Shown piece after piece: positions 14,741 through 29,353 of a DNA stretch of 32,000 bases (position 1 is the first letter of the stretch; every line of letters starts with the position of its first letter). The notes below the pieces were generated by a model that did not search any database, was not told the DNA's origin, and was given only the letters and a program-made list of their open reading frames with translations. This stretch comes from Gemmatimonadales bacterium (GTDB lineage Bacteria > Gemmatimonadota > Gemmatimonadetes > Gemmatimonadales > GWC2-71-9), in the NCBI GenBank assembly GCA_036003865.1, contig DASYRZ010000054.1, positions 28,445 to 60,444 of the forward strand. Reading direction: 5' to 3'. The position numbers and the translations under genes were made by a program.

Positions 14741-16087
14741 GTGACTGAGCCCACGCTGTTTCAAGGCTCGACAGAGCCGTTAGGGGCCAGAATGCGCCCC
14801 AAGACGCTCGACCGGTTCCTTGGTCAAGAACATCTACTGGGACCCGGGAAGGCGCTCGGTGACTTGATCCGTCGCGGCGACGTGGGGTCGTGCATCTTCT
14901 GGGGCCCGCCAGGCTCGGGCAAGACCACCCTCGCCAGAATCATTGCCAACTATACGGACCGCCACTTCGAGCCGTTTTCCGCGGTCACTGAAGGCGTGGC
15001 CCGAGTCCGGGAAATCATCCGCGAAGCCGAGGACCGGCTCAAGTACCAGGGGCAGGGCACGATTCTGTTTTGCGACGAGATCCACCGCTTCAACAAGGCG
15101 CAGCAGGATGCGTTCCTGCCGTGGGTCGAGAACGGCGTCATCACCCTCATCGGCGCGACGACGGAGAACCCGAGCTTCGAGCTGACGAGCGCGCTCCTGT
15201 CGCGGTGTCGCGTGTTTGTCCTGGAACCGCTCACCGATGAGCACATCCGGATAATCATCGAGCGGGGGACTGGGGAATGGGGAAAGGGGAAGAGCGCCGG
15301 CGCGGTTCTGGGATTCGATGCAGACGCGCTGGACCTCTTGGTGCGCCATGCTCAAGGAGACGCGCGTCGGGCGTTGAATACTCTCGAAGCCGTCTTCAAG
15401 CACGCCGAGCACCAGTCCCCATTCCCCAGTCCCCTCGGTGCTGATCTAGTGCGGAGCGTGCTCGAAAAGCCGCTGCCAGTCTACGATAAGGCCGGTGAGC
15501 AGCACTTCAATCTGATTTCGGCATTGCACAAAGCGGTGCGCGGCTCGGACGTGGACGGGGCGCTCTATTGGCTCGCCCGCATGCTCGCGGGTGGCGAAGA
15601 CCCGCTCTACATCGCGCGACGGCTCGTGCGCATGGCGATCGAGGACATCGGACTCGCGGATCCGCGCGGCTTGACCGTCGCGCTGGCCGCGAAGGACGCC
15701 TACCACTTCCTCGGCAGCCCTGAAGGAGAGCTGGCGCTGGCCGAAGCGACGATCTATCTGGCCACGGCGCCCAAATCGAATCGGGTCTACGCCGCGTTCG
15801 GGGATGCGCAGGCGGCGGCCCAGGAGCATCCGGCGGAGCCCGTCCCGCTGCACATTCGCAACGCCCCCACAGGGCTGATGAAAGAGCTCGGCTACGGCGC
15901 AGGATACAAGTACGCGCACGAGTACGCGGACGGCTACGTCCCGCAGGAGTATCTGCCGGAGAGCCTGCGGGGGCAGAACTGGTATCGGCCGACCGATTTC
16001 GGATACGAAAAGACGGTCGCGGAGCGGATGGAGTTCTGGGCCAAATTGAAACAGCGAATGGCGCGTGGTGATTCATCCGAGACGTGA
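14741..16087 (+). CDS. rarA: Replication-associated recombination protein A (MgsA/RarA AAA+ ATPase)
   Basis: The motifs are Walker [12 protein letters not shown], Walker [13 protein letters not shown], sensor [11 protein letters not shown], and the C-terminal [26 protein letters not shown]...[11 protein letters not shown] and APKSN. Confidence 0.9.
15265..15292 (+). repeat. Heptamer micro-repeat (ggggact ggggaat ggggaaa ggggaag), in frame in rarA; four G4 runs with 3-nt spacers
   Basis: Read directly. It encodes GTGEWGKGK. Confidence 0.85.
15414..15434 (-). repeat. Heptamer micro-repeat in inverse orientation (agtcccc attcccc agtcccc), in frame in rarA
   Basis: Read directly. It encodes QSPFPSP. 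Positions 15416-15434 are a perfect 19-nt inverted complement of 15265-15283. Confidence 0.85.
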
Positions 16088-16219
16088 GTTAACGACAAGC
16101 GCCGCCTTGCGATACCCCTGCTAGACATCTGACACAAAGGATGATGACGCGCGTCACGGACGCTCTGGGCATGGGTTTGTAAACTCAGGCCCGAGCGAGC
16201 GCGCGGTGGAGAAAAGCGC

Positions 16220-16316
16220 TCGCACGCTGCTCAGAGCAAAGCCGTCGAAAGGCGGTGACGCAGAGCTACGGGGCTACGGCGGTTCGCCGCCATGCCAGCC
16301 GGGCCGCCAGCGGACC
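16220..16316 (+). promoter_or_regulatory. Candidate GEMM-I (cyclic-di-GMP-I class) riboswitch aptamer
   Basis: The core 16232-16274, CAGAGCAAA-GCCGUC-GAAA-GGCGGU-GACGCAGAGC-UACGGGGC, parallels the Vc2 core CAGGGCAAA-CCAUUC-GAAA-GAGUGG-GACGCAAAGC-CUCCGGCC (quoted from memory). The P2 stem carries compensatory changes and keeps the GAAA tetraloop. A P3 hairpin can be drawn (cgg/ggc/ggcgg-uucg-ccgcc/gcc/ccg) and a P1 pairing cgcug (16225-16229) with cagcg (16308-16312). The element lies 72 nt upstream of a surface-lipoprotein operon, in the same orientation. Confidence 0.6.
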
Positions 16317-16341
16317 ACGACACGGGTCTCGTTGGCGGCCC
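16301..16341 (+). terminator. Possible expression-platform hairpin overlapping the 3' side of the aptamer
   Basis: gggccgcca (16301-16309) pairs with tggcggccc (16333-16341). The 5' arm shares nucleotides with the P3 and P1 3' strands, so the two folds are mutually exclusive. The downstream tract ggtcgcattt is only weakly U-rich. Confidence 0.3.
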
Positions 16342-16383
16342 GGTCGCATTTGACAATGTCCCGGAGCAGCGGAGGCGGATCCG

Positions 16384-18014
<1,631 letters not shown>

Positions 18015-18024
<10 letters not shown>

Positions 18025-20444
18025 CGCGCGTGACCACTACGTCCACGCGTTCCTCGCGCCTCTTCCTTCTTAAGGCGTGCGTGCTGACGCTGGTGGTGAT
18101 CGCCTGCGAGTTTCCCACCCGCACGCCCAACGACCCGACCGCCGTGGTCGCCGTCTTGCCTCAATCCGTCGCCCTGTTTCCGAATCAGTCCATCACGTTC
18201 ATGGCGGTTGGTCTGACAGCGGCTGGCGACACGTCGCAGGCCGGTGTCACGTGGAGTGTCACGGGCGGCTCGGTGGGCAGTGAGAGTAACAGTCGCGGTC
18301 GCCATTACGTGCAGTACCAGGCGACCTCCGCCCCGGGGCAGTATCAGATCGCGGCGCAAGCACAGGACGGCCCGGCCGACACGGCGAGCATCACCGTGAC
18401 GTCGGCATCCGTCGCCTCCGTAACCGTGACCCCGTCGACAGCCAGTGTCGGTGTCGGGAGCACGGTGCAACTGACCGCCACGCTGAAAGACTCTGCGGGC
18501 AACTCCCTGAACGGGCGACCGGTGACGTGGGTCAGCGGCTCGCCGACGGTGGCGACGGTGGACGCGAACGGGCTGGTGATCGGCGTGTCCACGGGCAGCG
18601 CGACGATTACGGCGACGAGCGGCAGCGCCAGCGGGTCGGCCACGGTCACGGTCACGGGGCCCGCGCCGGTGGCTTCGGTCACAGTGACGCCGGCGACGCC
18701 GAGTATCGGCGTTGGGAATACCGTTCAGCTGACGGCCACGCTGAAGGACTCCGCGGGGAACACTTTGACCGGCCGGCCCGTGACGTGGACCAGCGGATCG
18801 CCGACCGTGGCGACGGTGAACGCGAGTGGACTGGTGACCGGCGTGTCCGCGGGCAGTGCGACGATCACGGCGACGAGCGGCAGTGTCAGTGGCTCGGCCA
18901 CGGTCACGGTCAGGCCGCCAGCGCCGGTGGCATCGGTCACGGTGACGCCGGCGACGCCGAGCATCGGCGTCGGGAACACCGTTCAGTTGACGGCCACGCT
19001 GAAGGACTCCGCGGGGAACACCTTGACCGGTCGGCCCGTGACGTGGGCGAGCGGATCGCCGACGGTGGCGACAGTGACTGCGACTGGACTGGTGACCGGC
19101 GTGTCCGCGGGCAGCGCGACGATTACAGCAACGAGTGGCAGCGTCAGTGGGTCGGCCACGGTGACGGTCACGCAGTCATCCGGCTCGGGCCCTATCACCG
19201 ACCCATGGGTCGTCCTCACAGAGCCGACGCTTCCCAAGCCCGGGGCGCTGACGCCGATACTCCCCGCGCCATACGGTTTGAAGGTGACGAGAATCGTCGG
19301 TGACCCCGGTTCGTCGTTTACGATGAGCGCGGGAGGGAGCGGGAGCTGGGGGTCCGACGCGCGCCATCACTATTCGGATGACCAGCCGTGGAACGCGGAC
19401 GGCACGTTGCTGATGTTGCAGAACAGCGGCTCGCCCGGTGATCTGTTGCTCGACGGTGCGACGTATGCGCCCTACAAGAGCGGGTGCAGCGACGGTGGGT
19501 ATGGTCGCTGGGTTCCGACAGTCGCGCATAAGTTCGAGCGGGTGTCCAATGAGGGTGGCACGCTGTTCTGGTACGATGTGCGTACCTGCGCGACCACCCG
19601 AAGCTGGAACCTTCCGTTCTCGGCCACGGCCGACATCGAGATGGGGGCCTCCAATGATGGGCGCTACCTCGCGCTCTCGGACGGCCAGCGGGTCTTCGTC
19701 GTAGACATGGATCCGCAGGCGCCGTACTCGCCCTATCCGAATCAACGGATCGGGCCGGCGTACGATTACTCGAGCTGCGGCGTGTCGAGCGGCTGTCAGC
19801 TCGACTGGACCCAGGTGTCGGCGTCCGGGAAGTACGTGATCGTGCATTTCGAGGGGGACTGGCAGCAGGTGCTCGACGTCAATCCGACCACGCTGGCCCT
19901 CACGCCGCGCGCCATGCCCAGCGGCTCGTATCGGTGCCACGGCACGGCGGCGCAAGGGTTCATCGAGGATCTTGGCCATCCCGACGTGGCGCTGAATCCG
20001 TTCGACAGCAACGAGGATGTGGTGATCGGGCAGGAGCACTGCGGCAACATCGGCAGCACGGTGAATGGGCAACTGATCGGCGGCGTGATGATGGTGCGGT
20101 TGCGCGATGGCGCGATCACGTCGCTCAGCGATCCGACGAACGAGTCGTATCCGTATCACATCTCGACCCGTAACCTCGATCGGCCCGGCTGGGTGTACGT
20201 GACGTATTGGCCGAGCGCGGGGGAGCGCTTCAACGACGAGATCGTGGCCTACAAGCTCGACGGCAGCGGGTCGGTCGAGCGCTATGCGCACAGCCACAGC
20301 AACTCGAGTGGCTGCTACCGGTGCGAACCGCACAGCGTGCCGGCGCGCGACGGGCGACGGATCCTCTGGGCCAGCACCTGGACGATCAATGGGACGGGCG
20401 GGTCCAGTTCCGTTACCCAAGCCTATGTCGTGGATGCCAGATAA
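18015..20444 (+). CDS. Lipoprotein B: Ig-like N-terminal domain, three tandem Big_2 domains, and a ~420-aa uncharacterised Cys/His-rich (beta-propeller-like) C-terminal domain
   Basis: The ATG overlaps the gene A stop by 10 nt. The lipobox is LVVIAC-EFP. The Big_2 consensus is VGxTVQLTATLKDSAGN...VTWxSGSPTVATV...GSATITATSG. The C-terminal domain (from ~19176) is paralogous to 25262..26695. Confidence 0.85.
18402..19175 (+). repeat. Three tandem 258-bp (86-aa) repeats, each encoding one Big_2 domain
   Basis: The unit starts at 18402, 18660 and 18918 are in register. Units 2 and 3 are ~90% identical at nucleotide level by eye. Confidence 0.9.
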
Positions 20445-20501
20445 GCGCTGGTCCCTGTAGCACTTCGCTTACGACTCTGCCGTAGCCGACCTGCAGACCC
20501 T

Positions 20502-20535
20502 ACGTCGCTCCGCGCTCAACAGTGCGGGGCGACGT
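20502..20535 (+). terminator. 12-bp GC-rich stem-loop downstream of gene B (possible terminator / transcript boundary, no U-tract)
   Basis: acgtcgctccgc (20502-20513) pairs with gcggggcgacgt (20524-20535), including one G-U pair, around a 10-nt loop. It lies 58 nt after the stop codon. Confidence 0.35.
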
Positions 20536-20584
20536 CGCTTAAGTGGCCACGTGACTTGGCCCGGATCGTGCTCATCGCGACCAC

Positions 20585-21640
20585 GTGATCACAGCGTTCG
20601 ATCCCGCCGTCGGGTCGCTGGCCCTCCTGCCATTCGAGAAGAACTCGGATCAGTGGGACGCGTTCGTGCAGCGCACCCCCGGCTCCACGTTCTGCCATCT
20701 GGCGGGGTGGCGCGAGATCATGACCGACGTCCTGGGCCACGAGTGCCTGTACCGCATCGCTGCCGATGCGGACGGCAGGTGGCAGGGCGTGCTGCCGCTC
20801 GTGCGGGTGCGCAGCCGGCTGTTTGGTCACTACCTCGTGTCGATGCCGTTTCTCAACTATGGCGGGCCGATCGGCACTCCCGCGGCGCAGCGCCTACTCG
20901 CCGAGGACGCCAACGTGCTCGCGCGGCGCTCAGCCGTTGATCTGCTCGAGTTGCGCACGCGTCACAGTGTGCCGTGCGATCTGGAGATCTCCAATCGCAA
21001 GATTACGGTCGTGCTGAATCTACCGGAGTCACCGGAGCTCCTGTGGCGCAAGGTTCTGCCGAGCTCCCGGCGACGGCAGATCGAGCGCGCCAAGAAGGAG
21101 GGCTTGGAAGCGCGGTTCGGTCCGGATCAGCTGGAGCCCTTCTACGAGGTCTTCGCGCGCAACATGCGTGACCTCGGTACGCCCGTGCTGCCGCGCCGCC
21201 TGTTCGAGGAGATCGCCCGCCTCTTTCCGAATTTCGCGGTGTTCGGTGTGGCCTACGGCAACGGCAGACCCCTTGCCGGCGGCTGCGGCTTCGTCTGGGG
21301 TGATGAATTCGAGATTACGTGGGTCTCGTCATTGCGCGAGTACGATCATCTGATGCCCAACATGTTTCTGTACTGGTCGTACATGCAGCACCTGATTGGG
21401 CGGGGCGTCCGCGTTTTCAATTTCGGCCGCTGTACGCCGAATGGTCGCACGCATCGGTTCAAGCATCAGTGGGGCGGCGTAGATGTGCCGCTCCCGTGGT
21501 TACAGTGGTCTCCCAGCGAGATCGCCACGACGCCATCTCCAGAGCGTCCGATCTATCGGGTCGCCACCGCGATGTGGAGTTACATCCCGGTGCGCGTAGC
21601 GAATCTCGTCGGTCCAGTTCTCGCCCGCCAAATTCCCTAA
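20585..21640 (+). CDS. FemAB-family / GNAT (Acetyltransf_6, BioF2-like) acyl- or aminoacyl-transferase of the type found in exopolysaccharide (PEP-CTERM-type) loci
   Basis: The protein is ~351 aa. It carries FCHLAGWREIM...GVLPLVRVRSRLFGHYLVSMPFLNYGGP and a C-terminal half ...FEITWVSSLREYDHLMPNMFLYWSYMQHLIGRGVRVFNFGR, typical of FemAB-like two-GNAT-lobe proteins. It starts at a GTG. Confidence 0.6.
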   Translation: MITAFDPAVGSLALLPFEKNSDQWDAFVQRTPGSTFCHLAGWREIMTDVLGHECLYRIAADADGRWQGVLPLVRVRSRLFGHYLVSMPFLNYGGPIGTPAAQRLLAEDANVLARRSAVDLLELRTRHSVPCDLEISNRKITVVLNLPESPELLWRKVLPSSRRRQIERAKKEGLEARFGPDQLEPFYEVFARNMRDLGTPVLPRRLFEEIARLFPNFAVFGVAYGNGRPLAGGCGFVWGDEFEITWVSSLREYDHLMPNMFLYWSYMQHLIGRGVRVFNFGRCTPNGRTHRFKHQWGGVDVPLPWLQWSPSEIATTPSPERPIYRVATAMWSYIPVRVANLVGPVLARQIP

Positions 21641-21644
21641 TCGC

Positions 21645-24600
21645 TTGCGTCGTTCTGCCAGGTCGCATTGGCCCAAGCAGATCGCGGCTGTCGCGCTGAC
21701 TCTGGCGCTCGCTTGTACCTCCGATAACCACGTCGTCAGTCCGACGAAGGACTTCGCGCCGTCGGCGACGTCCTCGATCGCTCCCCCCCCCGAGGTGCTG
21801 GTGGGGGCAGGGAACATCGCGACTTGCAGCACGACGAATGATGATGCGACCGCGTCATTGCTCGACAACATCGCGGGCACTGTCTACACGACGGGCGACA
21901 ACATCTACGGATTAGGCGCGCTCGCCGAGTTCCAGACCTGTTACGGACCGTCGTGGGGCCGGCATAAGGCGCGGACCCGGCCGGCGGTGGGCAACAAGGA
22001 GTACCAGACGGCAGGCGCGGCGGGGTATTGGCAGTATTTCGGCGCGGCAGCGGGCGATTCGGGCAAGTACTACTACAGTTACGATCTGGGCGCCTGGCAC
22101 GTGGTCGTGCTGAACAGCCAGATCGATATGACGGTGGGCTCGGCGCAGGAGGTGTGGCTGAAGGCCGACCTCGCCGCGAGCGCGAAGCGCTGCACGGTGG
22201 CGCTGTGGGATCAACCGCGCTTCAGCTCGAGCGGCACGAGCGTGCGGTCGGCGGTGAAGCCGTTGTGGGACGCGCTGTACGCGGCTAAAGCGGACCTGGT
22301 GCTGAACGCGCACTATCGGGTCTATGAGCGGTTCGCGCCGCAGACGCCGGCGGGAGCGGCGGACCCGGTGAATGGGATCCGGCAGTTCACGGTGGGGACG
22401 GGCGGATCGACCGTGGACGTGTTCGGGACGCCGCTGGCGAACAGCGAGGTGCGGGCGACGAGCGTGTATGGCGTCTTGAAGCTGACGCTGGCGGACGGGA
22501 CCTACAGCTGGCAATTCATTCCCATCGCCGGCCAAACCTTCACGGATCAAGGGACGGGCAACTGTCATCGCACTCCGCCCACCAATCAAGCGCCGTCCGC
22601 GAATCCGGGTGGTCCCTATACGTCGTCCACCGGGACGGTGACGTTCGACGGGAGCGGCTCTTCAGATCCGGATAACAACCTGCCACTCGCCTACACGTGG
22701 GCGTTCGGCGACGGCACGCAAGGCACGGGCGTCGCGCCCGCGCACAGTTACGCGGGGAACGGCACCTATACAGTGACGCTGACTGTCACCGATACGCTGG
22801 GTACCGCAAGCACCCCCGCCACCACGACGGCGACGATTGCGACTCCGCTGAACAATCCCCCGGTCGTGAATGCTGGATCGGATGTGACCGTCGGCGTTGC
22901 GTTCAATCTGAGCGCGACGTTCAGCGATCTCGACCTCGACGATGCGCCGTGGACGTATCAGATCGCGTGGGGTGACGGCGGCACGGACAACGGCGGCAGT
23001 GCGACCCAAGCAAGCGCAGTCAGGGCATCGCACACCTATGCGACGAGCGGGTCATACACTGCTCGCGTGACCGTGACCGACAAGAACGGCGGCGCGGGAT
23101 CTGATGATCTGATCGTCACGGTTGCGAACACGAATGTGCTGGTGGGGGCGGCCGACATTGCGGACTGCGGCGTGACTGGCGACGAGGCGACGGCGGCCCT
23201 ACTGGACGCGATCCCCGGCACGGTCTTTACCGCCGGCGACAACGTCTACCCGGAGGGCGATGCAACGCAATTCACGAGCTGTTATCACCCGTCGTGGGGC
23301 CGCCATCTGGCGCGCACGCGCCCGGCGGCCGGTAATCACGATTACCTCGACAACCCTGCGCTCGGCGCCGCCGACTACTTCAATTACTTTGGGCCTGCGG
23401 CCGGTGATCCGACGACGGGGTGGTACAGTTACGACCTCGGCGCCTGGCACGTCGTCGTGCTGAACAGCAATCTCTCCATGACTGCCGGCTCGCCACAGGA
23501 GCAGTGGTTACGGGCGGACCTCGCCGCCTCGAGCAAGCGCTGCACGCTGGCGTACTGGCATCACCCTCGCTTCAGTTCTGGATCGCACCACGGCAGCTCC
23601 ACCGACCCGCTGCCCGTGTGGCAGGCGCTCTATCAGGCAGGCGCGGAAATCGTCATCTCCGGGCATGATCATGCGTACGAGCGCTTCGCGCCCCAAACAC
23701 CCGAGGGCTTCTCCGATCCCAATTACGGCATCCGGGAGTTCATCGTCGGAACCGGGGGCAAGGACCATTACGGATTTAGGACGCCGTTGCCGACCAGCGA
23801 GGTGCGGGACAGCACGTCTTTCGGCGTGCTGAAGCTGACACTGCGTGTCACCGATTACGACTGGCAGTTCATCCCGGTCGCGGGCGCGAGCTCTAGCGAT
23901 GCGGGCAGCGGCTCGTGCCATGGTACCCCGCCACCGAACGCGCCGCCGGTTGCCAATCCAGGTGGGCCGTACGCCTCCTCGACGGGGACAGTCACGTTCG
24001 ACGGCGCTGCCTCATCCGATCCGGATAACCACCTGCCGCTCACCTACGCCTGGACGTTCGGCGACGGGACAACGGGGAGCGGGGTGACACCGACGCACAG
24101 CTACCTGTTGAGCGGTACGTACACGGTACGGCTCGCCGTGATGGATGCATTGGGCGCGTCCAGCGGGTCGGCGAGCACCACAGCGACCATCAGCATCCCG
24201 CCCGCTCCGGTCGCGTCCGTGGACGTCAGTCCTGCCAACGCCAGCATCCAGGCCGGTGTCTCCATCCAGCTCACGGCCACACCGCGAGATGCGAGCGGCA
24301 ACGCGCTGTTCGGCCGGACGATCACCTGGGCGACCGACAACGCCGGCGTGGCGACGGTAGATGGAGGCGGAGTGGTGACCGGGCGGGGGGCTGCGGTTGG
24401 TACCGCCACAATCTCCGCCACGAGCGAGGGGCGGACCGGTGTCGCGACGATCACAGTCACCACGGCTCCGGGCGCGGTGACATTCGTCGGTGCGGGCAAC
24501 ATCGCCTCCTGCAGCGGGACGAACGACGATGCCACCGCGACCTTGCTCGACAACATCGCGGGTACCGTCTTCACGACGGGCGACAATATTTACGGCGACG

Positions 24601-25256
24601 GATCACCGACCGATTTCCAGACCTGTTACGGGCCATCGTGGGGCCGCCACAAGGCCCGGACCCGGCCGGCGTCGGGGAACAAGGAATACCAGGCTCCCGG
24701 CGCTGGGGGCTACTGGCAGTATTTCGGCGCGGCGGCGGGCGATTCGGGGAAGTACTACTACAGCTACGATCTGGGCGCCTGGCACGTGGTGGTGCTCAAC
24801 AGTCAGATCAACATGGCGGTCGGATCACCGCAGGAGCAGTGGTTGAAGACCGACCTCGCGGCGAGTACCAAGCGCTGTACCGTGGCGATCTGGGATCAGC
24901 CGCGGTTCAGCTCGAGTGGCACTAGCGTCCGCTCCGCGGTGAAGCCGCTCTGGGACGCGCTCTACGCGGCCAAAGCCGAGCTCGTGCTGAATGCGCATTA
25001 CCGAGTGTACGAGCGATTCGCGCCGCAGACGCCAACGGGAGCGGCGGATCCGGTGAATGGGATCCGGCAATTCACGGTCGGAACCGGCGGATCGACAGCC
25101 GATCTGTTCGGGACCCCGATTGCGAACAGCGAAGTGCGGGCGACGAGCGTGTATGGCGTCTTGAAACTGACGCTCGCGGACGGGAATTACACCTGGCAAT
25201 TCATTCCCATCGCCGGCCAAACCTTCACGGATTCGGGCAGCGGCGACTGCCACTAG
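21645..25256 (+). CDS. Lipoprotein C (1203 aa): MPE* - PKD - PKD - MPE - PKD - Big_2 - MPE* (* = degenerate active-site motifs)
   Basis: A TTG start lies 4 nt after the femAB-like stop. The lipobox is LTLALAC. The PKD signatures are FDGSGSSDPDNNLPLAYTWAFGDG...YTVTLTVTD and two more. The central MPE domain has GNHDY (23331-23345) and GHDHAYERF (23661-23687). The flanking MPE domains have GNKEY (21990-22004; 24675-24689) and NAHYRVYERF (22305-22334; 24990-25019). Confidence 0.85.
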   Translation: MRRSARSHWPKQIAAVALTLALACTSDNHVVSPTKDFAPSATSSIAPPPEVLVGAGNIATCSTTNDDATASLLDNIAGTVYTTGDNIYGLGALAEFQTCYGPSWGRHKARTRPAVGNKEYQTAGAAGYWQYFGAAAGDSGKYYYSYDLGAWHVVVLNSQIDMTVGSAQEVWLKADLAASAKRCTVALWDQPRFSSSGTSVRSAVKPLWDALYAAKADLVLNAHYRVYERFAPQTPAGAADPVNGIRQFTVGTGGSTVDVFGTPLANSEVRATSVYGVLKLTLADGTYSWQFIPIAGQTFTDQGTGNCHRTPPTNQAPSANPGGPYTSSTGTVTFDGSGSSDPDNNLPLAYTWAFGDGTQGTGVAPAHSYAGNGTYTVTLTVTDTLGTASTPATTTATIATPLNNPPVVNAGSDVTVGVAFNLSATFSDLDLDDAPWTYQIAWGDGGTDNGGSATQASAVRASHTYATSGSYTARVTVTDKNGGAGSDDLIVTVANTNVLVGAADIADCGVTGDEATAALLDAIPGTVFTAGDNVYPEGDATQFTSCYHPSWGRHLARTRPAAGNHDYLDNPALGAADYFNYFGPAAGDPTTGWYSYDLGAWHVVVLNSNLSMTAGSPQEQWLRADLAASSKRCTLAYWHHPRFSSGSHHGSSTDPLPVWQALYQAGAEIVISGHDHAYERFAPQTPEGFSDPNYGIREFIVGTGGKDHYGFRTPLPTSEVRDSTSFGVLKLTLRVTDYDWQFIPVAGASSSDAGSGSCHGTPPPNAPPVANPGGPYASSTGTVTFDGAASSDPDNHLPLTYAWTFGDGTTGSGVTPTHSYLLSGTYTVRLAVMDALGASSGSASTTATISIPPAPVASVDVSPANASIQAGVSIQLTATPRDASGNALFGRTITWATDNAGVATVDGGGVVTGRGAAVGTATISATSEGRTGVATITVTTAPGAVTFVGAGNIASCSGTNDDATATLLDNIAGTVFTTGDNIYGDGSPTDFQTCYGPSWGRHKARTRPASGNKEYQAPGAGGYWQYFGAAAGDSGKYYYSYDLGAWHVVVLNSQINMAVGSPQEQWLKTDLAASTKRCTVAIWDQPRFSSSGTSVRSAVKPLWDALYAAKAELVLNAHYRVYERFAPQTPTGAADPVNGIRQFTVGTGGSTADLFGTPIANSEVRATSVYGVLKLTLADGNYTWQFIPIAGQTFTDSGSGDCH

Positions 25257-25261
25257 CGGTC

Positions 25262-26695
25262 ATGCGGCTGCGTTGTGCTGTTCCCGGCGTGCTGGCCTGT
25301 ACGATTCTGTCCATAGGGGGAGCGGAGTACTTCCGCTCGGTCATCCCGAATGGAGCGGCATCTCCCCAAGCAGGCCGCCGCCCGCTCACCGATCCTGATG
25401 CCGTCCTCCCCGAACCGCGCGTGCCGAAGCCGGCGTACCTGGTGCCCCTGTTTCCCGAGCCGTTTGGGCTGAAAGTGCTGCGTATTACCGATGACACGGG
25501 AAAACAAATCGGCTTCCCCTCGAGCCAGCGCGGCACCTGGGGGTCGGATGCTCGCCACCACTATTCCAACGATCAACCCTGGAGTGCGGATGGAGCCCTC
25601 CTCGCCATCCAGAACAGCGGGGGCGGCACTCCCAACTACGTCTATCTCGATGGCGAGACGTATCGCCCGGTGCGGGGGCCGTGTGCGAATTACGACTATT
25701 ACGACGACCGCTGGCATCCGAGCCGCCGCCACCCACGGGAGCGGATCAACGTCAATCGGACGGACAAGCTCACCTGGTTCGACGTCATCAACTGCACCGA
25801 GACGCGCAGCTGGACCCTGCCGATTCCCGTAAAGGGGATCGGCGGCAACCCGTCGGACGACGGCAGGTTCGTGGCGCTCACCGATGAACGGCACGCGTTC
25901 ATCGTGGACATGGACCCGCAGCCGCCACTCGCACCATATCCCAACCGACGCATTGGACCGCCGCGCGATCTCACGGGCGACTGCGAATTGCCCGAGGGCT
26001 GTGCCGTGAACTGGGTCTCGATCTCGCCATCAGGCCAATACATGGTCGTGAATTACCACGGCGATCACCTGCGCGTCTACGATGTGAACGCCGGCACGCT
26101 CGCTATCACACCGCGTCCCATGCCGACGACGTATCCCAAGTGCAGCGGCACGGCGAGCAATGGGTTCATTTACGACCTTGGGCATCAGGACATGGCGCTC
26201 AACCCGTTCGATCACAACGAAGACGTCATCATCGGCCAGGAGCACTGCGGCAACCGCGGCCAACGGTTGGCCGGCGGGAGGATTCTCGTGGGGGGGGTGA
26301 TGATGGTGCGGTTGCGCGACGGGGCGATCACCGCGCTGACGACGCCAACCAACGAAGCGTATCCCTATCACATATCGACCCGGAATTATGACCGGCCGGG
26401 ATGGGCGTACGTGTCATACTGGCCCTCGGCGGGGGGCCGGGGGAGGTTTAGCGATGAGATCATCGCCGTGCGGATGGATGGCAGCGGCACGGTGGAACGG
26501 TACGCGCACACGCGGACCGAGACGGCGGGGTGCTACCGCTGCGAGGCGCACGCCGTGCCATCGCGGGACGGCAAGCGCATCGTCTGGGCGAGCACGTGGG
26601 GAACGAAACCGCGACCGGGGGGGGCAGGGGGGGCAGGGGGGGCAGGGGGGGCAGCACCGCCGGTCGTGCAGGCCTATGTCGTCGACGCGCGCTGA
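25262..26695 (+). CDS. Lipoprotein D: stand-alone copy of the uncharacterised Cys/His-rich (beta-propeller-like) domain, with a (GGA)4 tail insert
   Basis: The ATG lies 5 nt after the gene C stop. The lipobox-like sequence is GVLAC. The protein is collinear with the C-terminal domain of gene B: WGSDARHHYSxDQPW, VDMDPQxP, ALNPFDxNEDVxIGQEHCGN, GGVMMVRLRDGAIT, YPYHISTRNxDRPGW, GCYRCExH, QAYVVDAR. Confidence 0.8.
   Translation: MRLRCAVPGVLACTILSIGGAEYFRSVIPNGAASPQAGRRPLTDPDAVLPEPRVPKPAYLVPLFPEPFGLKVLRITDDTGKQIGFPSSQRGTWGSDARHHYSNDQPWSADGALLAIQNSGGGTPNYVYLDGETYRPVRGPCANYDYYDDRWHPSRRHPRERINVNRTDKLTWFDVINCTETRSWTLPIPVKGIGGNPSDDGRFVALTDERHAFIVDMDPQPPLAPYPNRRIGPPRDLTGDCELPEGCAVNWVSISPSGQYMVVNYHGDHLRVYDVNAGTLAITPRPMPTTYPKCSGTASNGFIYDLGHQDMALNPFDHNEDVIIGQEHCGNRGQRLAGGRILVGGVMMVRLRDGAITALTTPTNEAYPYHISTRNYDRPGWAYVSYWPSAGGRGRFSDEIIAVRMDGSGTVERYAHTRTETAGCYRCEAHAVPSRDGKRIVWASTWGTKPRPGGAGGAGGAGGAAPPVVQAYVVDAR
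26617..26653 (+). repeat. G8-CA-(G7-CA)3: four tandem 9-nt units (G-quadruplex-type motif) in the 3' end of gene D
   Basis: Counted base by base. It encodes GGAGGAGGAGGA in frame. Confidence 0.95.
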
Positions 26696-27828
26696 AGCGC
26701 AGGGGCCGGCAGCGTCCGCCGCCTGCTGAGCTCGCCGTACATACTGGCGGTGCGCTCGAACATGTGATCGAAGGTGAACTGCGCCTCGTAGCGCGCGCGA
26801 CCGGCGCGTCCTAGGCGCCTCCGCAGCGTCGGAAACTCGAGCAACAGCTCCAGCCGCGATTGGAGTGCGCCGACGTCCCCCGACGGGACGAGGAATCCCG
26901 TCTCGAATTCCGCCACCGACTCGCTCACGCCGCCCACGTCAGATGCAACGACGGGCAAGCCCGCTCGCATTGCCTCGAGGATGCTGCGCGGAAACCCCTC
27001 CCAGCGACTGATCAGCAAGAAGACCTGGCTGCGCGCAAGGTGCTCGGCCACATCATTGCGGGCGCCGAGGAAATGCACGCGATCCGCTATGCCAAGGTCT
27101 TGGGCGAGCGCGGCGATCTGCGCACGGTCCGGACCATCACCGATCAGGTCCAGCTGCCACGCTCGCCCGCGCAGACCGGCGAGCGCGTGCAGCAGCGTCC
27201 CGTGATCCTTCTGCGTCTCGAAACGAGCGACCATGACCAGCCGCACTGGCGAGCCCTCCGGCGTCGTGCGGAGCTCGGGTGCGATGTCCGGCATCCCATT
27301 GTGCACCGTCGTCACCTTCGGCGCCGGGGCGACATGATAGCGGAGGGCGAGCTGTCGGTCGTAATCGCATACGGCAATGACGCGGTCCGCGGCGAGCACG
27401 CCGATGCGCTCGAGCCAGCGGTAACAGTAGGCGGCGACGCGGGGCACGCCCGTCGTGAATGACCACCCGTGCGTCGTCTGGATGCAGGGAATGCCGAGCG
27501 ACGCGGCCGCGAGCGCGGCAAGCCAACCCGCCTTGGCGGCGTGGGTGGAGACGAGATCCGGCCGGAGTTCGCGCAGCACGGCCCGCAGCTCAAAGAATGC
27601 CGCCACATCGTGCCAGGGGTGGATCGGCCGGACGAGATGCCGCAGCGAACGGTACGGAATGGCGCGGCCCCGCAGCTCTTCCGTGAACGGCCCCTCTCCC
27701 CCGACCACGACAACCGGCTCCCCGCCACGCGCGCGCAACTCGAGCGCCACATCGCGGATATGGATGTGCCCGCCGCCGATCGAGTCGGACCGCGTTATGA
27801 CGTAGGCCACCTTGGGAGTGGGGGTCAC
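26674..27828 (-). CDS. Glycosyltransferase family 4 (GT-B, group 1)
   Basis: The N-terminus is KVAYVITRSDSIGGGHIH. The C-terminal motif is SRWEGFPRSILEAMRAGLPVVASDVGG...E (E-x7-E region). The GTG start overlaps the upstream aminotransferase stop (GTGA). Confidence 0.85.
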   Translation of the reverse strand: MTPTPKVAYVITRSDSIGGGHIHIRDVALELRARGGEPVVVVGGEGPFTEELRGRAIPYRSLRHLVRPIHPWHDVAAFFELRAVLRELRPDLVSTHAAKAGWLAALAAASLGIPCIQTTHGWSFTTGVPRVAAYCYRWLERIGVLAADRVIAVCDYDRQLALRYHVAPAPKVTTVHNGMPDIAPELRTTPEGSPVRLVMVARFETQKDHGTLLHALAGLRGRAWQLDLIGDGPDRAQIAALAQDLGIADRVHFLGARNDVAEHLARSQVFLLISRWEGFPRSILEAMRAGLPVVASDVGGVSESVAEFETGFLVPSGDVGALQSRLELLLEFPTLRRRLGRAGRARYEAQFTFDHMFERTASMYGELSRRRTLPAPALQRASTT

Positions 27829-29012
27829 CGGCGGAACGCGTCGATGATGTCGAGCACCGCGTCGATCACGTCGTCAACATCCTGGTCGCTCAGCCGGCAG
27901 TTGAGCGGCAGGCTGATCATGCGGCGGTAGTTGGAGTAGGCGAGCGGATACGTCCCCGGCACGAAGCGATACTTGTCGCAGTAGTAGGGATGGAGGTGAA
28001 TGGGAATGAAATGCACCGAGGTGCCGATATTGCGTTTCGTGAGCTCCTCGATGAATTGATCCCGATCGAGGCGCAGCGCCTCCAGACGCAGCCGCAGCAC
28101 GTACAGATGCCAGGCATGCTCGACGTCCGGCCGTTCCACCGGTGTCTCGAGCGCGTCCTGATCCGCGAAGGCGTTGGTGTAGCGCGCAACCACCTCACGG
28201 CGACGCTGCTGAAAACCCGGAAGCTTCTTGAGCTGCCACAGACCGAGCGCGGCCTGGATGTCTGTCATGTTGTACTTGAAGCCGGGATGGAGCACTTCGT
28301 AGAACCATTTCCCGCCCTTGTCGTAGCGCTTCCACGCATCACGACTCATCCCGTGGAGGCTGATGAGACGCGCCCGCTCCAAGAACTGCGGGCTGGCGGT
28401 CAGCATGCCCCCCTCTCCCGTGGTGAGGTTCTTCGTCGCGTAAAAACTGAACGCGACGGGGTTCGCTCCCGAGCCGATGAGGCGTCCTTTGTAGCGGGCA
28501 GGGACCGCGTGGGCGGCGTCTTCCACGATGGTGACGCCGTGTCGCTGCGCGGCGTGTTCGATGGGATCGAGGTCCACCGGGTGACCGGCGAAGTGGACCG
28601 GAATGATGGCCTTGGTGCGCGCGGTGATCGCCTCCTCCACCGCTCGAGGATCGATGTTCAGCGTATCGGGCTGCACGTCGACCAGCACGGGGCGGGCGCC
28701 GCAGTGCTCAATCACGTTCACCGAGGCGGCGAACGTCAGCGGCGTAGTGATGACCTCGTCGCCGGCGCCGACGCCGAGCGTGACGAGCGCGGTATGGAGC
28801 GCGGCGGTGCAGGAGTTCAGCGCGAGCGCCTGGGGCGCACCCAGAAACTGCGCGAATTCCGACTCAAACCGCTTCGTCTTCGGCCCCGTCGTAATCCACC
28901 CAGACCGCAGCGTGTCCACCACCTCGGCGATCTCCTCCTCGCCGATCAGTGGCGGCGCGAAGGGCAGGAACTGCTCGCGTGGGCGGAGGGGGCGCAGCGA
29001 TGGGATCGTCAT
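27825..29012 (-). CDS. DegT/DnrJ/EryC1/StrS-family PLP-dependent sugar aminotransferase (ArnB/PseC-like)
   Basis: FLPFAPPLIGEEEIAEVVDTLRSGWITTGPKTKRFESEFAQF, DAAHA, and SFYATKNLTTGEGG (PLP lysine) are present. The start at the internal Met (29012) is preferred over the track start at 29114 by comparison with typical N-termini. Confidence 0.85.
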   Translation of the reverse strand: MTIPSLRPLRPREQFLPFAPPLIGEEEIAEVVDTLRSGWITTGPKTKRFESEFAQFLGAPQALALNSCTAALHTALVTLGVGAGDEVITTPLTFAASVNVIEHCGARPVLVDVQPDTLNIDPRAVEEAITARTKAIIPVHFAGHPVDLDPIEHAAQRHGVTIVEDAAHAVPARYKGRLIGSGANPVAFSFYATKNLTTGEGGMLTASPQFLERARLISLHGMSRDAWKRYDKGGKWFYEVLHPGFKYNMTDIQAALGLWQLKKLPGFQQRRREVVARYTNAFADQDALETPVERPDVEHAWHLYVLRLRLEALRLDRDQFIEELTKRNIGTSVHFIPIHLHPYYCDKYRFVPGTYPLAYSNYRRMISLPLNCRLSDQDVDDVIDAVLDIIDAFRR

Positions 29013-29353
29013 CGGCTCGAGTCTCAGGTTGCAGTTGGGTTTGTGACACGACAGGAGTGCCATCTCGCAAGGGACGTGCACAAGCGGCGTCCGGCGTAAC
29101 ACACCATCAGGCAATGGGTTGCGAAACGGCGCCCCGAGACCGTCGGCGGGTCGCTGTCAGCCATCTATCGGCGGACTTGTAACCAATCTGCTACAAGACC
29201 CGCTGACGCCCAGCCGCCGTGCTCTCTCCAAAGACCTGAGCGGCGAAGCTATGTGCCTATAAGGAGTTCGCTTAACTCCAGCTCCGCAAAACGGGCAGGG
29301 AAGGCACAAGACTTGTAATCCGAGCGGACGACAACAGCCCGTCCTGAGGATTC

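Follow-up and report, generated by a model that had tools for sequence, protein, structure and literature searches.

A probable transcriptional ON riboswitch of the GEMM-I fold with a variant ligand pocket ahead of a surface-lipoprotein operon in Gemmatimonadota

The stretch of DNA analysed here, hereafter the window, comprises 32,000 nucleotides (nt) from a Gemmatimonadales bacterium (GenBank assembly GCA_036003865.1, contig DASYRZ010000054.1), with positions counted from its first letter. Near its middle, a gap of 296 nt separates rarA from the ATG of a lipoprotein gene, gene A. The RNA of this gap contains an aptamer of the GEMM-I family (cyclic di-guanosine monophosphate-I, c-di-GMP-I), a terminator-type hairpin overlapping the 3' end of the aptamer, and a Shine-Dalgarno sequence. 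Gene A is followed by genes B to E, and, judging by their common strand and spacing, the five genes (16384-26695) are probably co-transcribed. The features of the locus are listed in Table 1.

Table 1. Features of the riboswitch locus and its flanks (window coordinates).
Feature	Position	Strand	Remarks
rarA/mgsA	14741-16087		Upstream flank
GEMM-I (c-di-GMP-I family) aptamer including P1	16225-16312	+	RF01051 match; P1 reaches G16312; covariation
P1 5' strand CGCUG	16225-16229	+	Pairs with CAGCG 16308-16312; read from sequence
J1/2 CUCAGA	16230-16235	+	A16235 is the equivalent of Vc2 G20, contact to the ligand alpha base
P2 domain	16236-16261	+	6-bp stem 16241-16256, GAAA tetraloop 16247-16250
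J2/3	16262-16264	+	A16262 = A47 (intercalating base), G16263 = position 48, A16264 = A49
P3 domain	16265-16305	+	Receptor-like CUAC/CAUG; bulged G16298 (Vc2 G83 equivalent); C16305 = position 90
J3/1 (G16306, C16307)	16306-16307	+	Model positions 82-83; C16307 is the Vc2 C92 equivalent
Terminator-type anti-aptamer hairpin	16298-16344	+	5' arm = aptamer P3 3' strand, J3/1 and P1 3' strand
Weak U-rich tail CGCAUUUGACAAUGU	16345-16359	+	After the hairpin; read from sequence
Shine-Dalgarno GGAGG (16371-16375) and gene A ATG (16384-16386)	16371-16386	+	Read from sequence
Gene A	16384-18024	+	Lipoprotein: 2 Big_2, polyproline linker, metallophosphatase domain (Pfam)
Gene B	18015-20444	+	3 Big_2 and an uncharacterised C-terminal domain
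Gene C	20585-21640	+	FemAB-like, associated with PEP-CTERM systems
Gene D	21645-25256	+	3 metallophosphatase domains, PKD and Big_2 (Pfam)
Gene E	25262-26695	+	Paralogue of the gene B C-terminal domain

A scan of the whole 32 kb against Rfam returned a single match at the gathering level, in which the c-di-GMP-I model RF01051 covers model positions 1-87 at 16225-16311 on the plus strand with 65.5 bits (E 7e-11), the gathering score of this family being 35 bits. A preliminary description of the locus had recognised a GEMM-I aptamer here by its GCAAA motif, a 6-bp stem with a GAAA loop, GACGCA and a second hairpin; all of these elements are present in the sequence, and the significant match over the full model bears the assignment out. 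Read from 5' to 3', the chain runs through GCAAA, the 6-bp P2 stem with its GAAA cap (16241-16256), GACGCAGAGC and the P3 hairpin, and P1 was placed correctly in that description. At the base of the P2 domain lie the junction pairs G16236-C16261 and C16237-G16260, next to C16259, the equivalent of Vc2 C44.

The Vc2 aptamer of Vibrio cholerae (RF01051; PDB 3IRW/3MXH) provides a reference for the binding pocket. According to nuclear magnetic resonance and crystal structures, its junction contains the pairs G21-C46 and C22-G45, an A48-U90 Hoogsteen pair, an A-minor interaction of A49 and pairing of C92 with the ligand, and the published recognition nucleotides are G20, C92, A47 and A48 (PMC11705072, PMC3764141). 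The window RNA has in common with Vc2 the three-helix fold, the GCAAA/GACGCA junction, a pair of the G21-C46 type, the GAAA tetraloop with its receptor, and equivalents of C44-G83, of the intercalating A47 and of C92. The two RNAs differ at the site of the second ligand base, where Vc2 has G20 and the A48-U90 Hoogsteen pair, while the window has A and G48:C90. The Rfam alignment places A16235 at model position 11 (consensus G, Vc2 G20), the substitution that the preliminary description had pointed out. Thus, the fold is present and the canonical c-di-GMP pocket (G20, A48-U90) is absent, because A16235 and G16263:C16305 are found instead.

Relatives of the leader were sought around homologues of gene A, which are numerous, the named ones coming from Gemmatimonadetes or Gemmatimonadales; a look-up of the exact rarA and gene A products gave no record. 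On the contigs encoding three such homologues, 55-60% identical (L001-L008), an RF01051 match of 58-68 bits lies just 5' of gene A in each of the eight orthologous loci, always with A at position 20 (A20). The upstream neighbours vary among these loci and include an HflX-like GTPase, a MarR regulator or polysaccharide genes. Since the orthologues keep the aptamer while the upstream genes differ, the riboswitch belongs to the operon and not to rarA, in line with the proposal that it heads the lipoprotein operon.

To extend the sampling beyond orthologues, genomes (one per species) were scanned with a pattern in which GCAAA, P2 and GACGCA were the sole fixed elements and position 20 was free, which yielded at least 120 loci from many phyla. 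A distinct group with the form CUG(C/U)UCAGA-GCAAA ... GACGCA-GAG ... GCCG(G/A)GCCGCCAGC is evident among the genome matches listed, to which the genome counts given here refer; 11 of its 12 members come from genomes labelled Gemmatimonadota, spanning Gemmatimonadales and Longimicrobiales. One A20/G48/C90 aptamer (L016, VBAP01000130.1) stands on a contig of 4.6 kb that was assigned to the bin 'Bacillati bacterium ANGP1'. This contig shares a soil sample with a Gemmatimonadetes metagenome-assembled genome, so that either the binning is wrong or the subclass has a single representative in another phylum. In this sample, which was not selected on positions 20, 48 and 90, the combination G/A/U at these positions was the most frequent (72 aptamers), followed by G/A/C (21), A/G/C (12), A/A/U (6) and A/A/C (1), with 11 aptamers showing other or not assignable combinations. 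G48 always occurred together with A20 and C90 (12/12), as against 93 aptamers with G20/A48; the A20 aptamers of other phyla retain A48.

A second scan, of metagenomes, with N at positions 20 and 48, recovered 118 unique aptamers, 107 of them A20/G48 and eight of the proteobacterial G20/A48 type; mixed combinations total three, namely two A20/A48 and one G20/G48. These rare intermediates are found on L162 (1601-1697 and 3593-3688), L175 (3703-3799) and L228, and L162 carries three GEMM-I aptamers inside 3.7 kb. Together, the genome and metagenome scans gave more than 120 unique sequences of the subclass, with A at position 20 in 121 of 124 and C90 unvarying. The window positions 20/48/90 are A16235, G16263 and C16305, and by its sequence the RNA is a member of a phylum-wide subclass defined by A20 and G48:C90.

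An alignment of 123 unique subclass aptamers was then used to examine the structure. The GEMM-I structure pairs 91.6% of its cells and 12 pairs are changed on both sides; none of 500 shuffled alignments reached any of these measures, and slid controls had only 22-48% of cells paired. In P1, with 98% of cells paired, compensatory changes from CG to UA occurred three times and from GC to AU four times. Alternative pairs occur also in P2 (columns 25/32: CG 47, UA 41, UG 28), in P3 (columns 54/93: GC 68, AU 50) and at columns 66/84 (AU 55, GC 54). All helices are supported by covariation, so that the structure read from the window, including P1, is found in its relatives as well. Both junction pairs of the P2 domain are unvarying in 123/123 sequences, and the equivalents of G16306 and C16307 in J3/1 and of the C44-G83 interhelical pair (C16259, G16298) are invariant at the sequence level. 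The ligand-contacting A47 and C92 equivalents, A16262 and C16307, are kept and are likewise invariant in the 123 sequences. The GAAA loop is invariant and a receptor of the CUA(C/A) plus (C/U)AUG type is present, from which GNRA docking is predicted. A chance resemblance was considered and is rejected, given how well the model scores, that orthologous loci carry the aptamer and that its helices covary; on these sequence-level grounds the RNA is a genuine cyclic-dinucleotide riboswitch of the GEMM-I fold.

The combination of A20 with G48:C90 distinguishes this subclass from the variants described so far. The aptamers of Geobacter known as GEMM-Ib or c-AMP-GMP riboswitches (Gs1761, PDB 4YAZ; Gm0970) likewise have A at the G20 equivalent (A14 in Gs1761); according to secondary papers, they share the fold, are ON switches as well, control extracellular or surface functions and coexist with canonical G20 aptamers in the same organism. 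The pocket of Gs1761 is formed by A14, A41, A42, U73 and C75, with the A:U equivalents kept, and A42, which corresponds to position 48, touches the ligand in simulations (PMC6274999). At the equivalents of A42 and U73 the window has G and C, respectively, and the C15-G40 pair of Gs1761 is replaced by a G-C junction pair. The Gemmatimonadota RNAs come from another phylum, their ligand selectivity is a prediction, and they are not simply aptamers of the Geobacter type, because Gs1761 keeps the A:U equivalents. Cbe 1-2 of Clostridium beijerinckii, the Vc2 G20A mutant and the cluster-3 aptamer of Desulfobacca acetoxidans also have A20, in an otherwise canonical pocket, and bind cyclic GMP-AMP (cGAMP) without necessarily excluding c-di-GMP (PMC6140456, PMC9481103). 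A search of the open-access literature found no paper on GEMM riboswitches of Gemmatimonadota, and a full-text search with strings of the aptamer sequence returned irrelevant primer matches only. Neither the A20/G48:C90 subclass nor its tandem occurrence with canonical aptamers thus appears to be described in the literature searched.

Downstream of the aptamer, the hairpin at 16298-16344 is seen in minimum-free-energy folds and overlaps the aptamer at 16298-16312, so that the two structures are mutually exclusive. The terminator-containing fold has an energy of -78.1 kcal/mol, compared with -54.9 kcal/mol when the aptamer is enforced, and, since the former is much lower, the hairpin is the default state. 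The same arrangement recurs in relatives: in minimum-free-energy folds, the CCGCCAG segment pairs with downstream sequence in 106 of 122 unique related loci, as against three of 122 shuffled controls. In related loci, the 12 nt following the hairpin contain a median of 6 U, at least five U fall within an 8-nt window in 71 of 88 relatives, and strong U tails are common (for example, GGCGGCCCUUUUUGUUG in L056); L027 is another relative with a strong tract. The competing hairpin that the preliminary description had suggested as an expression platform is thus real, with the boundaries given in Table 1. It is a conserved platform of the terminator type that is exclusive with the aptamer, and the ligand should therefore switch transcription on; an ON switch is the most likely direction of control. 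Compared with Vc2, this ON-type terminator is a further difference.

As for the start of the transcript, a sigma-70 scan of the window found no promoter. A block at about 16090-16165 is conserved with L161, the closest metagenome relative, which has a near-identical leader, and the 55 nt between this block and P1 are not conserved. The conserved block may hold the promoter, with -35 and -10 elements that are not assignable.

Gemmatimonadota also frequently carry canonical G20/A48 aptamers. These lack a terminator, and within 12-29 nt of their 3' end, GCCGAAC..., lie GGAG and a start codon, which suggests that they control translation. Like the A20 type, they precede lipoproteins in this phylum. 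The two types are combined on one strand of at least 14 metagenome contigs: the leader opens with an A20/G48 aptamer and its strong terminator, and 150-185 nt later a G20/A48 aptamer follows, abutting the Shine-Dalgarno sequence of a lipoprotein gene; such a heterotypic tandem could be a two-input gate. Rfam finds both aptamers in all six tandem contigs tested. The tandems occur on L132, L135 (5691-5951), L137, L141, L159, L166, L186, L198, L205, L222, L224, L234, L241, L243 and L245, and L136 has the reversed order. The tandem leaders and the separate platform types indicate that the two classes coexist in single genomes without losing their identities, each with its own platform. Homotypic A20/G48 tandems, with aptamers about 150-180 nt apart, were observed as well (L131 10093-10346, L140 1482-1758, L163 850-1104, L212 1386-1637), and in the copies inspected each aptamer has its own terminator-like hairpin. 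Two aptamers in one leader are also known from tandem c-di-GMP-I riboswitches, of which 347 doublets have been reported, including Bc3-5 of Bacillus thuringiensis (PMC9481103); many of the tandems found here differ from these in being heterotypic, and the window itself has a single aptamer.

The G20-type aptamers of Gemmatimonadota have their best scores, 60-70 bits, against another family of the same clan, c-di-GMP-I-GGC (RF03167); examples are L135 5860-5951, L222 6148-6238, L224 1594-1685, L241 356-447 and L245 2536-2627. The window aptamer differs in scoring best as RF01051, and the G20-type aptamers of the tandems have an A and not the G that defines the RF03167 variant (GACGCAAAG). Because aptamers without this defining G nevertheless score best there, Rfam labels within the c-di-GMP-I clan can mislead in this phylum.

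The operon behind the aptamer encodes surface lipoproteins with Big_2 domains. The start of gene A is backed by an N-terminal motif, M-x-F-x-H-K-L, conserved in homologues, and the nearest solved relatives of its phosphatase domain are purple acid phosphatases (E 2e-11, PDB sequence search). Its first Big_2 domain is followed by a linker of about 66 residues of almost pure proline (residues ~127-192, window ~16762-16959), on the opposite strand of which lies a spurious poly-glycine open reading frame (16563-17186). The C-terminal domain of gene B (19170-20441, about 420 residues) is about 55% identical to gene E, and neither had a match in Pfam, NCBIfam or a PDB sequence search. Gene C passes the NCBIfam model TIGR03019 (FemAB-family, XrtA/PEP-CTERM-associated) with 281 bits against a cutoff of 260; its position beside glycosyltransferase and DegT aminotransferase genes, located 3' of the operon on the minus strand (26674-29114), suggests an exopolysaccharide or exosortase context. 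The phosphatase domains of gene D also resemble purple acid phosphatases, and PKD and Big_2 domains sit between the copies. Copies one and three are nearly identical, suggesting that part of the gene was duplicated recently. The order of gene A, gene B, an acetyltransferase gene and a large next gene is kept in L001/L002.

In relatives, the genes behind the aptamer encode either small secreted proteins or Big_2 lipoproteins that vary in their C-terminal domains. GEMM riboswitches are classically associated with secreted and surface proteins, and the Big_2 lipoprotein gene set is typical of the family. The preliminary description had presented the control of such lipoproteins as an undescribed type of regulon, which was overstated, given also that canonical G20 aptamers precede lipoproteins in the phylum.

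A conserved N-terminal peptide, M-x-F-x-(F/H)-K-L-(S/A)-x-R-L-A-x-(L/M)-(K/R), usually opens the genes behind A20-type riboswitches; it was noticed in the window (16384-16430), in gene B of L001 (5374-), in L021, L056 and L115, and at 51 of 118 related loci. It precedes a hydrophobic stretch and a lipobox cysteine, and lipoproteins behind G20-type aptamers are without it. The N-terminal part of gene A and gene B matched nothing in Pfam or NCBIfam. The possibility that this segment is an RNA element of the expression platform was rejected, since the codon changes are synonymous and leave the peptide intact. The peptide may serve as a sorting signal particular to this lineage.

Taken as a whole, the region 16225-16344 is most likely a riboswitch of the GEMM-I fold that acts as a transcriptional ON switch for the surface-lipoprotein operon of this member of the Gemmatimonadota. 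In the mechanism that we propose, the aptamer, with P1, P2 bearing the GAAA tetraloop and P3 bearing the receptor, could form as the RNA is made. A 3',3'-cyclic dinucleotide with at least one guanine would bind at the junction, where its guanine would pair with C16307, A16262 would intercalate between the two ligand bases, and the second base would face A16235 beside G16263:C16305. Binding would lock P1 and the base of P3 and so turn the operon on. Without ligand, 16298-16312 would pair with 16325-16344 into a stabler GC-rich hairpin with a U-containing tail, and transcription would end before gene A.

For the platform, the points that weigh against this reading concern the window copy: its U tract is weak, with four U in the best 8-nt window, and a simple terminator scan of the window made no call at the 16298-16344 hairpin. 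The tail CGCAUUUGACAAUGU is the weakest link for the terminator of this copy. One could suppose that the hairpin is non-regulatory, either as the rarA terminator or as a chance GC-rich structure, and that translation is controlled through pairing of GCUGCUC (16227-16233) with GAGCAGC (16366-16372) near the Shine-Dalgarno sequence; besides the weak U tract, the unconstrained fold of 16215-16400, which pairs the P1 5' strand with 16363-16372, speaks for such control. We regard this as very improbable, because the 5' arm of the hairpin is the aptamer's own 3' strand, the hairpin recurs in the 106 loci mentioned above with unrelated upstream genes and usually strong U tracts, and it starts about 210 nt past the rarA stop codon. 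Its function as the rarA terminator was rejected on the same ground, that it accompanies the aptamer beside unrelated upstream genes. The transcriptional ON switch thus remains the preferred reading of the platform.

The identity of the ligand is less certain. The retention of the C92 and A47 equivalents favours a guanine-containing dinucleotide. The foremost candidate, held with reserve, is 3',3'-cGAMP, either by itself or in combination with c-di-GMP; c-di-GMP with deliberately weakened or faster binding is a serious second one, and another guanine-containing dinucleotide is unlikely. A20 is a published marker of cGAMP-responsive GEMM-I RNAs, and natural A20 aptamers bind cGAMP, those of Geobacter selectively and Cbe 1-2 bispecifically (PMC6140456). 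In the Desulfobacca aptamer, the affinity for cGAMP is markedly improved and c-di-GMP binding is largely kept (PMC9481103). The apparent selectivity of A20 aptamers depends on P1 strength, and Vc2 G20A has dissociation constants of 53 nM for c-di-GMP and 120 nM for cGAMP (PMC6140456). Since Vc2 G20A and Cbe 1-2 bind both ligands, A20 is insufficient by itself to establish a preference for cGAMP. The preliminary description had taken A20 as the signature of GEMM-Ib with its preference for 3',3'-cGAMP; the A at this position stands, while the preference is not established, also because G48:C90 is unlike Gs1761, and the assignment is to be regarded as a reasonable hypothesis and not as a result.

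We put forward, as a tentative but serious possibility, that the A20/G48:C90 aptamers are a separate class, confined to Gemmatimonadota, that senses cGAMP made by an unrecognised synthase or a novel guanine dinucleotide and forms two-input gates with canonical aptamers. The triple signature, strictly kept beside canonical aptamers, and the fixed order of the heterotypic tandems speak for a ligand other than c-di-GMP. Several observations count against it. The regulons overlap, and one protein family (TGNGAPSG...NLNIIGVS) lies behind both A20- and G20-type aptamers, which fits a shared ligand; the Vc2 G20A mutant slightly favours c-di-GMP over cGAMP (PMC6140456); and the pocket departs from that of Geobacter, G48:C90 being absent from the characterised cGAMP riboswitch Gs1761 (A42, U73), so that the analogy is incomplete. 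No cGAMP synthase and no Hypr GGDEF has been reported for Gemmatimonadota in the literature searched, and a motif scan of 1.7 Mb of fetched loci found six GGDEF domains, all with the canonical Asp, in a sample too small to inform. It is accordingly quite possible, if somewhat doubtful, that the RNA is a plain c-di-GMP riboswitch in which A20 and G48:C90 relax the very high affinity and the slow kinetics of the canonical pocket so that a kinetically controlled transcriptional switch responds physiologically, cGAMP having no role. In addition to the overlapping gene families and the lack of reported Hypr GGDEF, this is supported by the binding of c-di-GMP to Vc2 G20A through a protonated adenine, and to Gs1761 and Cbe 1-2 (PMC6140456), and by the association of the A20 type with terminators and of the G20 type with ribosome-binding-site control, as if each pocket were tuned to its platform. 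However, affinity can be weakened in many ways, yet one exact triple signature is found across two orders; the conserved A20-then-G20 order in one leader resembles two inputs; and cGAMP is bound at least about as well as c-di-GMP by those natural A20 aptamers that have been described in these sources (PMC6140456, PMC9481103). A third option, in which A20 and G48:C90 reshape the alpha-base site for another guanine-containing dinucleotide, cyclic or linear and new to riboswitches, draws on the exclusiveness of G48 to the subclass, on the place of position 48 among the Vc2 recognition nucleotides and its contact with the ligand in the Gs1761 simulations, and on the repeated discovery of new-ligand variants hidden within parent riboswitch classes (PMC5473149). 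We consider it improbable, since the remaining pocket and fold are canonical, the gene context suggests no candidate molecule or synthase, and the exchange of A:U for G:C may be a neutral structural swap.

The family and A20 variants of it were already known, and the riboswitch at this locus is real, with a reasonably clear mechanism. Although Gemmatimonadota abound in soil, their signalling is, to our knowledge, almost unstudied, and outside phage defence we know of riboswitch-linked cGAMP signalling mainly from Geobacter and its relatives. A conserved pocket variant that occurs beside canonical aptamers, sometimes in the same leader, offers a direct test for a second dinucleotide signal in the phylum, and the rare G20/G48 and A20/A48 aptamers of L162, L175 and L228 are natural near-mutants for learning what positions 20, 48 and 90 each contribute to specificity. 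Should c-di-GMP prove to be the ligand, these RNAs would illustrate how a pocket is tuned according to whether transcription or translation is controlled, and they would define a large regulon in which c-di-GMP governs Big_2 surface lipoproteins. If the A20/G48:C90 aptamers are a separate class, they and the canonical c-di-GMP aptamers of the same leaders would make up natural two-input gates that govern the repertoire of surface lipoproteins in a major phylum of the soil.

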